Below the pieces are notes generated by a model. That model searched no databases. It had not been told where the DNA came from and saw only the letters and a list, made by a program, of their open reading frames with translations. The position numbers and the translations under genes were made by a program. From an uncultured Actinomycetes bacterium (GTDB taxonomy: Bacteria; Actinomycetota; Acidimicrobiia; Spongiisociales; DATADW01): a stretch of DNA of 64,000 nt. Numbering within the stretch: the stretch's first letter is position 1; each line of letters begins with the position of its first letter. The DNA lies in the NCBI GenBank assembly GCA_963733905.1, contig CAVTEU010000007.1, positions 277,840 to 341,839 on the forward strand. The letters are read 5' to 3'. Below, piece by piece: positions 84 through 47,617 of the stretch.

Positions 84-203
<120 letters not shown>

Positions 204-14429: not shown

Positions 14430-14488
14430 CTCAGCCGATGGTATCGATCGGGTCGTCGCCCAGACCTGGCGACCTAGGGTTCGCCGCC

Positions 14489-16051
14489 ATGAGCTTTCGG
14501 GTCACGTACGCAACCATGTCGGCGGATGATGCCGATCTCCACGACGGATACGACCACGGCATAGAGGCGGCGCGGAGCCGTCTTGGGGAGAGCCACCCGC
14601 TGATGATCGATGGCGAGGCGCGTCCCGGTGACGGCGAGCACGAGGAGCGATCCCCGATCGATCACGACGTCGTCCTGGGACGTTTCGCCCAAGCCACCGC
14701 GAAGGATGTCGATGCCGCTGTCGACGCCGCCCGCTCCTTCGCCCCGTCCTGGGCGGCGACACCCTGGCAGGAGCGCGCCAGGCTGTTGCGCGACGCGGCG
14801 GACGTCATCAGCGACCAGCGCTTCGAGTTGGCGGCGCTGATGACCATGGAAGTGGGGAAGAACCGCCTCGAGGCGTTGGGCGACGTCGAGGAGTCAGCCG
14901 ATCTGATCCGCTACTACTGCCACGAGATCGAGGACCAAGAGCGGCTACACGCAGGCCATGAACCGGCTGTCGCCCGATGAGGCCACCTGGGACGTGATGC
15001 GACCGTATGGCGTATGGGCGGTGATCAGTCCCTTCAACTTCCCGATGGCGCTTGCCGCCGGTCCGGCGGGGGCCGCCCTGGTCGCCGGGAACACGGTGGT
15101 GCTCAAGCCATCCAACGCCGGAGCGATGATGGCGGTGAGGCTGTACGAGGCGCTACGGCAGGCCGGTGTCCCGGCGGGTGCCGTCCACCTGGTCACGGGG
15201 TCGGGACCGGTTGCCGGCGACAGCGCTGGTGCACCACCCCGAAGTGGACGGGATCACGTTCACCGGCTCATACGAGGTGGGGATGGGGATCCACCGCAGC
15301 TTCGCCGCCGAGCTATCCGAAGCCGGCCATCTGCGAGATGGGTGGCAAGAACCCGGTGATCGTCACCGCCGCCGCCGACATCGACGAGGCGACCGACGGG
15401 GTGATGCGCTCCGCCTTCGGGTTCGGGGGTCAGAAATGCTCCGCCGCCTCGAGGGTCTATGTGGAGCGCCCGGTGGTGGACGAGTTCATCGACGGCCTCA
15501 TCGCCAAGGCGGAGAAGGTGGCGGTGGGTGACCCGCTCGACCGGTCGGTGTATCTCGGGCCGGTGATCGACCGGCGAGCAGTCGAGCGCTTCAGCGAAGC
15601 GGTGGCCGAAGCCCGGTCGACCGGCTCGATACTCGCCGGAGGCGAGGTCATCACCGAGGGTGATCTCGGGCGGGGGAACTTCGTCCAGCCGACCGTGGTG
15701 ACCGCTCCGGAGTCGTCGTGGATCTGGAAGCGGGAGCTGTTCGTCCCATTCGTGGCGGTGGCCGCGGTGGACGACATGGACGAGGGGCTGGCCCGGGCCA
15801 ACGACACCGAGTACGGGCTGACGGCAGGGTTCTACAGCCGAGACCAGGACGAGATCGACCGCTTCCTCACCGGGATCGAGGCCGGAGTCGTCTACATCAA
15901 CCGCAGGGCGGGGGCAACCACCGGCGCCTGGCCCGGCGTGCAGCCGTTCGGTGGCTGGAAGGGGTCGGGGACCAGCGGCAAGGCGGGCGGGGGTCCCCAC
16001 TACCTCACCCAGTACCTCAGGGAGCAGTCGCGCACCATCGTCGGAGGGTGA
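14489..16051 (+). pseudogene. aldehyde dehydrogenase, L-glutamate gamma-semialdehyde (P5C) dehydrogenase-like, 3 frameshifts as assembled
   Basis: WAATPWQERARLLRDAADV..MTMEVGKNRLEALGDVEE, GVWAVISPFNFPMAL..VVLKPS, FTGSYEVG, and EMGGKNPVIV...GGQKCSAASRVYV...PFGGWKGSGTSGKAGG lie in alternating frames. Confidence 0.85.
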
Positions 16052-16058
16052 GGGTTGC

Positions 16059-16525
16059 TCATTGCTCGCCGAGAGACCGGAGATCGCCGAGCACCTCCTC
16101 GGGGTGAGCCGCGTTGTCGGTAACCAGATAGGCGCGCCGCACCATCCCCTCGGGGTCGACCAGGTAGGTCACCCGTCTGCGGCCAGCCAAAGCGACGGTC
16201 ATCGGGCTCCCGTTCGACACCCTGGGCGCGCCCGATGGCATGGTCGGGGTCGGACAGCAACGGGAAAGTCGAATCCCATCATCTCCGACCAGGCGCGGTT
16301 GTCCTCGGGCGAGTCGTAGGACACCCCGAAGATGGCGGCGCCGGCTGCTTCGAATTCAGGGGTTCGGTCACGGAACCCCTCCCCTTCGAGCGTTCAGCCG
16401 GGGGTGTCCGCCTTGAGGTACCACCAGACGACTGCCCACTTCCCCAACAGGTCGCCGCGGGTCACCCGTCGCCCGCGGTCGTCCGTGGCTTCGAAGTCGG
16501 GGAGCGCCGTTCCCTCATCGAGCAA
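16059..16525 (-). pseudogene. bcp: Bcp-type peroxiredoxin (AhpC/TSA) with TGA at the peroxidatic Cys position, plus 2 downstream frameshifts
   Basis: TTG start 7 nt after AGGAGG. The sequence reads ...[69 protein letters not shown] and [18 protein letters not shown] follow in other frames. Confidence 0.75.
16350..16389 (-). promoter_or_regulatory. SECIS-like stem-loop downstream of the in-frame TGA of the peroxiredoxin gene
   Basis: The RNA reads UCGAA-GGGGA-GGGGUUC-CGUGACC-GAACCCC-UGAA-UUCGA. There is a perfect 7-bp apical stem starting 14 nt after the UGA, a 7-nt loop containing GU, and a 5-bp outer stem. Confidence 0.4.
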
Positions 16526-16542
16526 TGGATCACCTCCTCTCT

Positions 16543-17869
<1,327 letters not shown>

Positions 17870-17873
<4 letters not shown>

Positions 17874-25979: not shown

Positions 25980-27935
<1,956 letters not shown>

Positions 27936-28259
27936 TCACACGAGGACAGATCGGCGCGGGGGAGCGGAAAGGATGGTGCGAGCTATCGGTCACGACGGTC
28001 CTCCTCAGTTCTCGACGCGCTCTCCGGCGCCTCGAGCGGGAGTCCCGCCGTCGGCAGCTCATCGATCGGGCATTGGCACCGGTGTCGCTTCCTCTGTCTA
28101 TCGCTGGGGAGCTTCCGGTTGCCGCGGCTTCAAAGGGCCCGTCCCTCCACCGCTCTGGATAAGCGCGTTGTAGTGGCGGGGAAGTGTGCCACCCCGCCCG
28201 GTCACCGTCAAGGCAGAAGATCGCGCATCACGGGTCGGTCGAGTGTGATCGGTCTCGAT

Positions 28260-41167: not shown

Positions 41168-42619
41168 GTGACTCCCTTCCTCGCCGGTCTCCTGGTCTTT
41201 GGCACATCGGCCGTGGTGCTGGTCATGGAGATTCTCGCCGGCCGGCTGCTCGCCCCATACGTGGGGGTCACCCTCGAGACGTTCACCGCGATCATCGGCA
41301 CCGTTCTCGCCGGGATCGCCCTCGGGACGTGGCTGGGCGGGCGACTCTCCGACCGGGTCGAGCCTCGGCGGCTGCTCGGGCCCGAACTGGCGCTTGGTGG
41401 CGTGGCGGCGGCGCTGGCAGCGCCGATGGCCCGGCTCCTCGGCCCGACAGCGGTCAGCGCCAACCCACCGACGCTGGTGCTTCTGGTGCTGGTGACCGTG
41501 TTCGTCCCCGCCGCCCTCCTCAGTGCGGTTCCACCTACGGTGGTCAAGGCGGTGCTCGCCGACCTGGACCAGACAGGGAGCGTCGTGGGCCGGTACTCGG
41601 CGCTGGGAACCGCCGGGGCCATCGCCGGCACGTTTCTCACCGGGTTCGTCCTGGTCCCGCTGTTCCCCACCCCGCAGATACTGATGGGGCTGGCGGTCTT
41701 GCTCGTTGTCAGCGGGCTGGCGCTGTGGTGGTGGCTGGCCCCCACCCGGTCTGCCTTTCTGATCATCCCGGCACTCCTCGCCGGTGTCTGGCTGGGAGGC
41801 GCCCTGGCCGACCCATGCGAGACCGAGACCTCCTATTACTGCCTGCGGGTCGAGCAGGATGTCGACAACCCGTCGGGCCGGACCTTGTGGCTCGACACCC
41901 TGCGACACGCCTACGTCGACCTCGATGACCCCACCGAACTCCGGTTCACCTATACCCGGATGCTGGCGGCGGTGGCCGACGCCACCAGCGAGGGACCGAT
42001 CGACGTGCTCCACATCGGTGGTGGTGGGTTCACCATGCCGCGCTGGTTGGAAGCGACCAGACCAGGGTCCAGCGGGGTGGTGCTCGAGCTCGACCCCGAG
42101 ATCGTCGCTGTCGCCGAGGAGCGACTGGGATGGGAGCCGTCCCCGGAGGTCGACGTGCTCGTCGGCGACGCCAGGCTCGGCATCAGGCGGGTGGGTCAAT
42201 CGAGCGCCGATCTTGCGATCGGAGATGCCTTTGGCGGCGTCGCGGTCCCCTGGCACCTCACCACCGGCGAGTTCGTCGGTCAGGTCGCCGCGGTCCTCCG
42301 GCCCAATGGCGTCTACGCGGCGAACATCATCGACGGTTCGGAGATGGCCTTCCTCCGCGCCGAGGCCGCCACCTTCGCAACTGTCTTCGAGCACGTGGCG
42401 GTGTTGTCACTCCCCGAGCGATTCGGCAGTGGGGGCAATTTCCTGGTGGTGGGGAGCGATGAACCCATCCCGGCCGACGAGATCATCGCCGCCGGCTCCC
42501 TTCACGACCTCGATCTGAGGGTGCTGACCGGCGACGAGCTCGTCGACTTCATCGCCGATGCGGAGGTCCTGACCGACGGCCACGCACCGGTCGACCAGTT
42601 GCTCACTCCGGGGAGATGA
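41168..42619 (+). CDS. fused membrane domain / spermidine synthase-like methyltransferase-fold protein
   Basis: About 7 TM segments (FGTSAVVLVMEILAGRLLAPYVG...). They are followed by VLHIGGGGFTMPRWL...VVLELDPEIV...VGDAR...DLAIGDAF...NGVYAANI. A GTG start near 41168 was chosen within the longer ORF. Confidence 0.7.
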   Translation: MTPFLAGLLVFGTSAVVLVMEILAGRLLAPYVGVTLETFTAIIGTVLAGIALGTWLGGRLSDRVEPRRLLGPELALGGVAAALAAPMARLLGPTAVSANPPTLVLLVLVTVFVPAALLSAVPPTVVKAVLADLDQTGSVVGRYSALGTAGAIAGTFLTGFVLVPLFPTPQILMGLAVLLVVSGLALWWWLAPTRSAFLIIPALLAGVWLGGALADPCETETSYYCLRVEQDVDNPSGRTLWLDTLRHAYVDLDDPTELRFTYTRMLAAVADATSEGPIDVLHIGGGGFTMPRWLEATRPGSSGVVLELDPEIVAVAEERLGWEPSPEVDVLVGDARLGIRRVGQSSADLAIGDAFGGVAVPWHLTTGEFVGQVAAVLRPNGVYAANIIDGSEMAFLRAEAATFATVFEHVAVLSLPERFGSGGNFLVVGSDEPIPADEIIAAGSLHDLDLRVLTGDELVDFIADAEVLTDGHAPVDQLLTPGR

Positions 42620-43632: not shown

Positions 43633-44297
43633 GGGATACCGCTCGGATAGATGTCTCGTTCGCCGGTGACCAGTAGGCGCGTTTCCTCGGCGATGTCCAC
43701 CGCCTGATCGGCCACCCTTTCCAATGCCCGCGCCGCCATGATCATCCGCGTCGCCCATTCCAGCACGGAGCGGTCCGGCCCGATCGCCACGGCGGCATCA
43801 ATCGCATCTTTGTAGAAGTCGTCAACCTCGGCGTCGAGCAGCTTGAGTTCCTCGACCGCCGAATCGTCTCTCGCCGCGAATCCCGCCAGCGAGCGGTCGG
43901 TGATGGGGAGCACCGCTTCGCCCATGGCACGGAGCAGCCCCGCCAGCCGAGGGTCGTCGGGGAGCCCGTCGGTGGCGATCACCATCTTGGCGATGTTCGA
44001 CGCCTGGTCGCCCATACGCTCCAGCACGACGAGCAGATGGAGAAGCGAGGCGAGCAGCCGAAGATCGGAGCCCATGGGGCCCTGGGTTGCGGTGAGCACC
44101 ATCCACTGCCCGTGGAGGTCGAAGTACAACTCGTCGATGACGCGATCGCCCTCCACAACCCGCTCGGCCCGGGTCCGGTCCCGTTGGTCGAGGGCGGCAA
44201 CGGCCTCGGCGACCTGGGCCCGCACCTGCTTGCCCATATCGAGCGTGTCCGCTTCGAGCTTCTCCAGACTGGCGTGGAAGCGCCGGTTTGTGGTCAT
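43629..44297 (-). CDS. phoU: PhoU-family phosphate signalling regulator
   Basis: Two PhoU repeats are seen: D..IDELY...L....QGPMGSDLRLLASLLHLLVVLERMGDQASNIA, and the second repeat ERVADQAVDIAE. The start was taken at MTTNRRF. Confidence 0.85.
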   Translation of the reverse strand: MTTNRRFHASLEKLEADTLDMGKQVRAQVAEAVAALDQRDRTRAERVVEGDRVIDELYFDLHGQWMVLTATQGPMGSDLRLLASLLHLLVVLERMGDQASNIAKMVIATDGLPDDPRLAGLLRAMGEAVLPITDRSLAGFAARDDSAVEELKLLDAEVDDFYKDAIDAAVAIGPDRSVLEWATRMIMAARALERVADQAVDIAEETRLLVTGERDIYPSGIP

Positions 44298-44382
44298 CGT
44301 GGGTGGTGACTGTATGCGCCCGTTTCCGATTCGGCGGAGCAGTCCGAGGTGGTCGTTACCCTGTCGGCCCCATCGGGGAGGG

Positions 44383-46500
<2,118 letters not shown>

Positions 46501-46550
46501 CAGTCGGCGTTCTGGCGCTCCCCCTACCCCCTCCGGGGCGACTTGGATGG

Positions 46551-46578
46551 GCCGTCTGCCGTCCGCCGTCCGCCGTCC
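46551..46578 (+). repeat. tandem heptamer repeat (GCCGTCY)x4, second copy
   Basis: GCCGTCT GCCGTCC GCCGTCC GCCGTCC lies between the convergent glgX and dehydrogenase genes. It matches the array at 9623-9650 on the opposite strand. Confidence 0.8.
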
Positions 46579-46585
46579 TTGCAGG

Positions 46586-47617
46586 TCACCCGAGGCGGTC
46601 GGTGTGCTCGGTCCTCTCCTCGCCGTAGATCTCGGGGTTGACCAGGTTGGGTGGTCTTCTCCCCTCGATCATGGCGCGCAGGTTGTCGACCACCGCCAGG
46701 CTCATCGCCTCGCGCGCCTCCACCGTGGCGCTGCCGATGTGAGGGGTGAGGATCACATTGGGGAAACGGAACAGCTCGGGGCTCGGGGCGGGCTCCCCCA
46801 CCGGTGGCTCCTGCCAGTAGACGTCCAGTCCGGCTCCGGCGATCTCACCGGCTTCGAGCGCCGCGATCAGCGCCTGCTCGTCCACGATGCGGCCCCGTGC
46901 CGTGTTGACGAAGAAGGCCGACCTCTTCATCAGGCCGAACTGGCGGGCGCCGAACATCAGGTGGGTCGTCGGGTTGTAGGTGGCCATCACCGACACCACG
47001 TCCGACCTGACGAGCAGGTCATCGAGTTCAGGAACCCACTCGACTCCCAGTTCCTGCTCGCTCGACTCGGGCAACCGGTTGCGCTTGGTGTAGATGATTT
47101 CCATCTCGAAGCCGCGCATCCGGCGGACGATCTCGGTCCCGATCGCCCCGAGACCGACCATCCCCAGCACCTTGCCGGTCAGCCCCTGGGGTGAGGAATG
47201 AGACCGACTGCTCCTGGTGGAACCGGCCGGACCGGACGAATTCGTCGGCCTCGACCAGCCGCCAAGCGAGCCCGATGATGAGGGCGCAGGTGAGATCGCA
47301 GGTTGCCTTGGTGATCACGTGCGGGACCACGGTCACCGGAAGCCCGCGTTTCGTCGCTGCTTCCACATCCACCACGTTGGGGAAGAGCGCCATGGTGGCG
47401 ATGCCCTTGAGCCCGAGGTGACGCCGCCATCACCTCTTCGTCTATCGGGTGTATCGCCCAGCATCCAGATGTAGTCGGCATCCTCGACCCCGGCGAGCAG
47501 ATCGGGCTTGCTGATCATCCGATCGCTTTCGTGCACCTCGACGTCGGCGATCTCCTCCAGAGCGCTCCGTCCGACATCCATCACCGGTTGCACCACGAAG
47601 ACCTTTGGTCTGGCCAC
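46586..47617 (-). pseudogene. D-isomer-specific 2-hydroxyacid dehydrogenase (glyoxylate/hydroxypyruvate reductase-like), >=2 frameshifts
   Basis: ARPKVFVVQPV is near the N-terminus. The NAD site is [31 protein letters not shown]...AGLDVY..EP and LTPHIGSAT are present. The N-terminal third is split over 3 frames. Confidence 0.8.

Follow-up and report, generated by a model that had tools for sequence, protein, structure and literature searches.

The window analyzed here, a 64-kb stretch of contig CAVTEU010000007.1 from an uncultured Actinomycetes bacterium, carries on its minus strand a Bcp/PrxQ-type peroxiredoxin gene (16059–16525) in which an in-frame TGA (16394–16396) occupies the peroxidatic position of the T-P-G-[C/U]-T motif. 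From the sequence, its reading frames, and the alignment of intact orthologs, the gene spans 467 nt, equivalent to 154 codons, a stop codon, and two extra bases. It begins at a TTG codon (16523–16525, minus strand) preceded at a distance of 7 nt by the Shine–Dalgarno sequence AGGAGG (16533–16538, minus strand), which all six closest relatives share unchanged, and it ends at a second TGA, the terminator (16059–16061, minus strand). The start codon lies 43 codons upstream of the internal UGA, and exactly this distance recurs in most family loci that we examined. The hairpin GGGGUUC/CGUGACC/GAACCCC (16359–16379, minus strand) follows the UGA after 14 nt. We find that the in-frame TGA is almost certainly read as selenocysteine (Sec), as the comparison with related genes detailed below indicates. 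The locus as a whole is best explained as a gene for a Sec-containing Bcp/PrxQ peroxiredoxin in which UGA44 is recoded by way of a Sec insertion sequence (SECIS) and in which the organism's real gene is intact, a reading to which we assign a probability of roughly 0.88. A preliminary description of this DNA had already proposed a candidate selenoprotein here, and the conservation of the TGA and the covariation of the hairpin across its relatives now support that proposal.

To place the product in a family, we used as query a repaired protein of 154 residues, obtained by joining the gene across its two frameshifts (see below) and placing Cys at the TGA. The repaired protein matches the Pfam family AhpC-TSA (PF00578) with an E-value of 4e-30 and 104.7 bits, against a gathering cut-off of 26, and covers positions 2 to 123 of the 124 in the profile. 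The best match among solved structures is Xanthomonas campestris BCP/PrxQ (PDB 5iph, 3gkk, and related entries; E = 1.8e-23, residues 17–151), with the T-P-G-C-T and R-x-T-F/Y-L motifs aligned and the window TGA on the peroxidatic Cys. The active site thus reads T41-P-G-U44, with Thr41 conserved, and the catalytic arginine is Arg117 (codon CGG, 16175–16173), which stands in the sequence RVTYLVDP, does not vary in the family alignment, and lies in the RVTYLV segment that aligns to the catalytic-Arg strand of the Xanthomonas enzyme. Xanthomonas BCP and Escherichia coli Bcp are Cys enzymes and possess a resolving Cys, C84 in the former. In the window protein, by contrast, Sec stands at the peroxidatic site and Ser at the Xanthomonas resolving-Cys position, and there is no cysteine anywhere. 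We conclude that the gene encodes, by homology, a Bcp/PrxQ peroxiredoxin fold. Three claims of the preliminary description are thereby borne out: the TTG start at 16525 with AGGAGG (16538–16533) 7 nt upstream, the location of the TGA (16396–16394) at the peroxidatic Cys of a Bcp protein, which the Pfam match and the Xanthomonas alignment both confirm, and a frame that stays open and family-like for more than 35 codons past the TGA, as seen in the window frames.

Evidence that this TGA is a Sec codon comes from its conservation. We scanned one genome per GTDB species with an alignment that combined Sec and Cys forms and took the 80 most similar genes as relatives. TGA stands at exactly the peroxidatic codon in 74 of these 80 species-level relatives, and Cys in the remaining six, which belong to Pseudofrankia (L011), Frankia (L013), and four metagenome-assembled genomes (MAGs; L017, L027, L060, and L063). 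In the alignment with Cys orthologs, the window TGA falls on the Cys of all six, on that of the database proteins P0002 and P0004, and on that of the BCPs in the PDB. The hosts of the Sec form are mostly MAGs of Acidimicrobiia from soil, sediment, and sponges, and they also include Mycobacteriales MAGs, Thioalkalivibrio sp. HK1, a gammaproteobacterial MAG, and members of the Myxococcota, Eisenbacteria, and Acidobacteriota. The same TGA is found in the metagenome contigs L002 to L004 and in independent short-read and long-read assemblies.

Database searches with the repaired protein return a pattern consistent with a UGA that gene callers take for a stop. The nine closest database proteins (56–90% identity) cover only the C-terminal 55 to 68% of the query and are gene calls that begin past the Cys position, while slightly more distant matches are full length and carry TPGCT. 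At the DNA level, the contigs behind three of these calls show one in-frame TGA as the only interruption: loci L001, L002, L003, and L004 each have about 43 N-terminal codons in frame, then the TGA, then family-like sequence, and the two short-read contigs and the Joint Genome Institute (JGI) contig behind these calls contain no frameshift. In the public records, P0001, P0003, P0005 to P0007, P0009, P0054, P0072, and P0083 are C-terminal fragments of 87 to 116 residues named "peroxiredoxin Q/BCP", and the 43-codon N-terminal part is annotated as a separate tiny open reading frame (ORF) or left uncalled. The JGI contig, L002, additionally contains near the N terminus (at about 1040–1110) a threefold tandem repeat of a 15-nt unit that encodes LPVFE and that other members of the family lack.

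The sequence beyond the UGA behaves as coding sequence in these relatives. An intact ORF of 101 to 129 codons follows the UGA in 72 of the 74 Sec-form genes, and the median Nei–Gojobori ratio of nonsynonymous to synonymous substitution rates (dN/dS) downstream of the UGA lies near 0.3 for the two length groups with the most members (n = 26 and 18) and near 0.63 to 0.66 for two groups that are small and saturated (n = 6 and 4). These values and the open frames indicate that the region after the UGA is translated and under purifying selection across the family. TGA is also the terminator of 49 of the 71 intact Sec-form genes, as it is of the window gene itself, and thus UGA is an ordinary stop codon in these genomes that is recoded only at the catalytic site. 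In a neighbor-joining tree, the sub-clade of the window gene consists entirely of Sec forms, the Frankia and Pseudofrankia genes make up one small Cys clade, and Cys forms are otherwise scattered among Sec forms, a distribution that suggests repeated exchange between Sec and Cys.

We next consider the hairpin as a candidate SECIS. Its 5′ arm GGGGUUC (16379–16373), loop CGUGACC (16372–16366), and 3′ arm GAACCCC (16365–16359) form a 7-bp stem that begins 14 nt after the UGA, as the preliminary description had drawn it, and an apical loop that begins 21 nt after the UGA. The fold energy of this core is –10.5 kcal/mol, and a possible lower stem, UCGAA/UUCGA (16389–16385 with 16354–16350, minus strand), which flanks the upper hairpin and would extend the structure to 16350–16389, brings it to –18.9 kcal/mol. 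A recent review (PMC13188914, 2026) describes bacterial SECIS elements as having an apical loop of 3 to 9 nt, an upper stem of 4 to 16 bp, a G in the first two loop positions that is usually followed by G or U, a distance of 16 to 37 nt from UGA to loop, and a minimum free energy of –7.5 kcal/mol or lower. The window element, with a 7-nt loop, a stem of 7 to 8 bp, a spacing of 21 nt, and –10.5 kcal/mol, lies within all four numerical ranges, and its loop has G at position 2 followed by U. Taken alone, this hairpin is only modestly more stable than shuffled sequences (z = –2.1 to –2.75), and the case for a SECIS therefore rests on the relatives.

For the comparison across the family, we took the 54 nt from the UGA onward at every locus, which gave 74 distinct Sec-form sequences, and adjusted the register for loop length. 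The 5′ arm ends at a constant column, and the 3′ arm is shifted according to whether the loop has 5, 6, or 7 nt (5–7 nt in 72 of 74), as in GGGGUUC-CGUGACC-GAACCCC, GGAGCUC-CGUGAUC-GAGCUCC, GGGCCUG-CGUGAU-CAGGCCC, and GGCGCUG-CGUGA-CAGUGCC. Over the 74 sequences, the uninterrupted stem averages 6.7 bp, compared to 1.76 bp when the 3′ arms are shuffled (maximum 2.3 in 500 shuffles). Fifty sequences close the loop with a C-G pair and 23 with G-C, stem pairs 3, 4, and 5 each occur as three to four standard pair types, and replacements in the two arms are coupled such that pairing is kept (UUC...GAA to CUG...CAG). The loop starts with CGUGA in 70 of the 74 Sec forms and with CGGGA in the other four. 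A count made in fixed register, in which 77% of cells were paired and covariation was 0.206 compared to 0.167, with none of 500 shuffles as high, understates the support, as the classes with 5- and 6-nt loops are out of register in the ungapped covariance-model alignment. A covariance model built on the UGA together with the hairpin had 79 matches in 1.4 Mb of related loci, all of them at the Bcp catalytic codon. The outer stem fared differently from the core: as the preliminary description had it, UCGAA/UUCGA does fold in the window, but across the family usually only its inner three pairs can form, without covariation, and it is not supported as a conserved structure. We conclude from this covariation that the hairpin downstream of the UGA is a bacterial SECIS, in agreement with the earlier view that its placement and shape suit one.

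These elements suggest the following course of expression. Translation would start at the TTG at 16525, and the UGA at codon 44 would not be read as a stop; instead, the hairpin 14 nt downstream would act as a bacterial SECIS and recruit SelB–GTP–Sec-tRNA(Sec) to the ribosome, where Sec is predicted to be inserted. In the 154-residue product, Sec44 would attack the peroxide together with Thr41 and Arg117. Because the product contains no cysteine, it would work as a "one-Sec" peroxiredoxin, whose selenenic acid intermediate would presumably be reduced by an external thiol partner.

Several observations weigh against this reading. At the level of the protein, the Pro of the PxxxTxxC motif is replaced by Leu37 (codon 16415–16417, minus strand). 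To our knowledge, this Pro is usually described as universal among peroxiredoxins; the nearest relatives of the window gene have Val there, and members of the wider Sec clade mostly have Pro. The best-scoring NCBIfam models for the window protein are those for Bcp (NF006960, 76.2 bits versus a cut-off of 140) and PrxQ (NF053650, 75.9 bits versus a cut-off of 260), and neither cut-off is reached. At the level of the RNA, no Rfam family matches the hairpin, even at a permissive threshold on 16300–16450. As for the decoding machinery, searches for selA, selB, selD, and tRNA-Sec (tblastn with E. coli SelA, SelB, and SelD, ARAGORN, and Rfam) found none in the 64-kb window and none in 1.4 Mb of sequence flanking 84 related loci. 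Finally, the frame of the window copy as written is broken twice after the UGA, such that it cannot be translated into the full protein, and the second of the two insertions responsible lies outside any homopolymer, where long-read errors are less typical.

The frameshifts give rise to the alternative that survives best, namely that the family is a true selenoprotein family of which the window copy is a recently inactivated pseudogene, with both insertions real mutations. The preliminary description had noted two frameshifts downstream, and both are indeed present as +1 insertions. The first adds a base to the TTTCCC (T3C3) run at 16262–16267 (minus strand), where relatives read GAC-TTCCCG or GAC-TTTCC, and the second adds a base in CCGCAGACGG, directly before the CGG codon of Arg117 (approximately 16176–16178, minus strand). 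In a DNA alignment with L012, L006, L005, L007, and L016, both are private to the window. That two frame-breaking insertions are present at all, that one of them is not in a homopolymer, and that the Bcp genes of L012 and L016, the closest relatives, contain one frameshift apiece would fit a lineage in which the gene is decaying. However, frame-breaking 1-nt insertions occur only in the window, L012 (about 97% DNA identity to the window gene), and L016 (the contig of L001; about 94%), and each of the three has its own at a different site: L012 has a different private insertion and L016 yet another. The Bcp genes of L005 (a short-read assembly), L006, and L007, which are 88 to 92% identical to the window gene, contain no frameshift. 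Moreover, the segments past each frameshift in the window match the family at every invariant column and have acquired no extra stops.

The quality of the surrounding sequence points in the same direction. Counting private frame-breaking indels in a six-way alignment of 3.1 kb gave 6 for the window, 4 each for L012 and L006, 2 each for L016 and L007, and 1 for the short-read assembly L005. Such counting in a multiple alignment discriminated the assemblies, whereas phase-run statistics on GC content at third codon positions did not, and ORF-based tblastn was too noisy. Genes unrelated to the peroxiredoxin are broken as well. The adjacent aldehyde dehydrogenase gene (14456–16051, plus strand) requires at least three frame changes, the O-acetylhomoserine sulfhydrylase gene on the other side (16568–17873, plus strand) requires one, and a gene of the alpha-amylase family (43843–47194, plus strand) is split into two overlapping ORFs. 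Because the adjacent, unrelated genes carry private 1-nt indels in a genome about 3% diverged from a relative, we consider the two single-base insertions in the Bcp gene to be, most likely, errors in the consensus of an error-prone assembly; if so, the organism's real gene is intact. Inactivation of the window copy is thus unlikely. Obvious decay in close relatives that share the TGA would also have told against a selenoprotein, and L005 to L007 and the more distant Sec forms are intact.

Two further alternatives, both very improbable in our judgment, accept the gene and question how the UGA is read or what the hairpin does. In the first, the UGA would be read through without Sec, for example by a near-cognate Cys or Trp tRNA or through stimulation by the hairpin, or the downstream part would be made separately after termination. 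Hairpins 3′ of stop codons can stimulate read-through in some systems, and the searches of the window and of the related loci found no Sec machinery. Against this, a UGA at the catalytic Cys of a thiol peroxidase, with Cys in sister lineages, is the classic signature of Sec/Cys exchange, the geometry of the hairpin and the G and U of its loop fit the SelB-type SECIS model, and Sec-peroxiredoxins are already catalogued as a selenoprotein family. Separate synthesis is disfavored as well, in that no start codon or ribosome-binding site is conserved downstream and the C-terminal fragment would lack the catalytic residue.

In the second, the hairpin would be a by-product of coding for a conserved G-F/L-R-D motif and have no function as RNA. 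The CGUGA of the loop does encode Arg-Asp, which is conserved in Cys-type Bcp proteins too, and the lower stem, as described above, does not covary. The Cys forms, however, encode the same L-R-D with CGC or CGA and have no comparable stem. Of the 74 Sec forms, 70 use CGU for the Arg in the loop, in genomes with a GC content of about 57 to 72% around the site, and the coupled replacements that preserve pairing change amino acids on both arms. The last alternative, under which an ordinary Cys-peroxiredoxin gene shows the TGA through a nonsense mutation or a base-call error, is effectively refuted: TGC differs from TGA by a single substitution and the window sequence is clearly error-prone, but the same TGA occurs in 74 species-level genomes of several phyla and in independent assemblies and metagenome contigs, accompanied by a covarying hairpin specific to Sec forms. 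The caution voiced in the preliminary description about a nonsense mutation or base-call error is therefore answered for the TGA; it is not fully answered for the frameshifts, which are probably consensus errors.

Additional searches and the literature bear on the machinery required by a selenoprotein. Pfam scans of 30 long ORFs in the window revealed no sel genes. All 84 complete genomes of Actinomarinales, an order of the class Acidimicrobiia, are reported to contain selA, selB, selC, and selD, and SelA is reported to occur together with SelB in the majority of sponge-symbiont bins from various phyla, support that for the present organism applies at the level of the class only. Two candidates were examined and rejected. 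In the Eisenbacteria loci L061, L080, and L082, a SelB-like GTPase is encoded some 340 bp past the end of the Sec-Bcp gene; it matches E. coli SelB weakly (31% over the G domain) and is a TypA/BipA-type protein of 608 residues. In the window itself, a 90-nt "tRNA-Gly(GCC)" predicted by ARAGORN at 41366–41455 (minus strand) was checked for resemblance to tRNA-Sec because of its length; it lies within coding-looking sequence, Rfam finds no tRNA there, and we regard it as a false positive. A crude scan of the window for further in-frame UGA codons followed by a hairpin gave one match, in sequence that does not look coding, and as the scan missed the Bcp UGA it is uninformative about others.

We compared the window gene to known Sec systems. 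The Sec-peroxiredoxin (Sec-Prx) family, defined by a TxxU motif and assigned to PF00578/COG1225 (PMC1088965, PMC13188914), was catalogued with 43 sequences in the Sargasso Sea selenoproteome and has been reported in 78 sequenced bacteria, which substantiates the earlier remark that replacement of Cys by Sec in peroxiredoxin-like proteins is known. Our comparison was made by motif and family assignment. By these measures, the window protein belongs to the same Pfam family and has Sec at the peroxidatic site of T-x-x-U (here T-P-G-U), the SECIS lies within the coding region just past the UGA, and Cys homologs are widespread. The window clade differs in being centered on Acidimicrobiia (soil and sponge MAGs), in the absence of any Cys from the window protein, and in a sub-clade with Leu or Val for the motif Pro. 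We take the window gene to be an additional member of the known TxxU family, with no new mechanism implied. We found no description in the literature of Sec-Prx in Acidimicrobiia.

The PrxU protein of Eubacterium acidaminophilum (NF040737) likewise is a Sec-peroxiredoxin, the Sec occupying the peroxidatic site, but it represents another subfamily; the window protein scores 37.9 bits against a cut-off of 270 and hence is not PrxU. The E. coli fdhF and fdnG SECIS elements, which with SelB form the paradigm behind the consensus bacterial model, resemble the window hairpin in being stem-loops immediately 3′ of the UGA and inside the ORF, with a spacing within 16 to 37 nt and a small apical loop that has G and then U near its start. 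They differ from it in that there is no sequence similarity, that the window element matches no Rfam model, and that its binding by SelB is only predicted.

More tentatively, and with the balance of probability against it, we propose that the Sec form is the default in this Bcp/PrxQ lineage. The lineage would then be an extensive clade, present in Acidimicrobiia of soil and sponges and dispersed through other phyla, whose members lack the resolving Cys at two canonical sites ("one-Sec"), carry Leu or Val for Pro in the sub-clade of the window, have their SECIS built on the codons for G-F/L-R-D, and are systematically miscalled as truncated genes. If this clade is uncatalogued, Sec decoding would be far commoner in aerobic high-GC Actinomycetota than selenoproteome surveys show. 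The fragmentary public gene calls conceal a selenoenzyme of full length in no fewer than 74 genomes at the species level. If Sec-Prx is the prevailing form in Acidimicrobiia, selenium would matter as a micronutrient to the oxidative-stress defense of abundant soil and sponge actinobacteria. The family also supplies a clean, covarying alignment of a bacterial SECIS from which a covariance model can be built where Rfam has no model that detects the element. The window itself serves as a warning about genome quality, as its frameshifts are likelier to be consensus errors than signs of gene decay. We see the value of the finding in annotation and ecology, not in a new mechanism.

Other features of the window are as follows. 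A 5S rRNA gene at 87–203 (plus strand) places the start of the window at the tail of an rRNA operon. An S-adenosylmethionine (SAM) riboswitch at 28056–28165 (minus strand; 65 bits versus a gathering score of 44) immediately precedes a long ORF at 25980–27932 (minus strand), the C-terminal 423 residues of which constitute a complete pyridoxal phosphate-dependent enzyme of Cys/Met metabolism. This enzyme is a second, intact metY-like paralog in addition to the frame-broken one that adjoins the Bcp gene.

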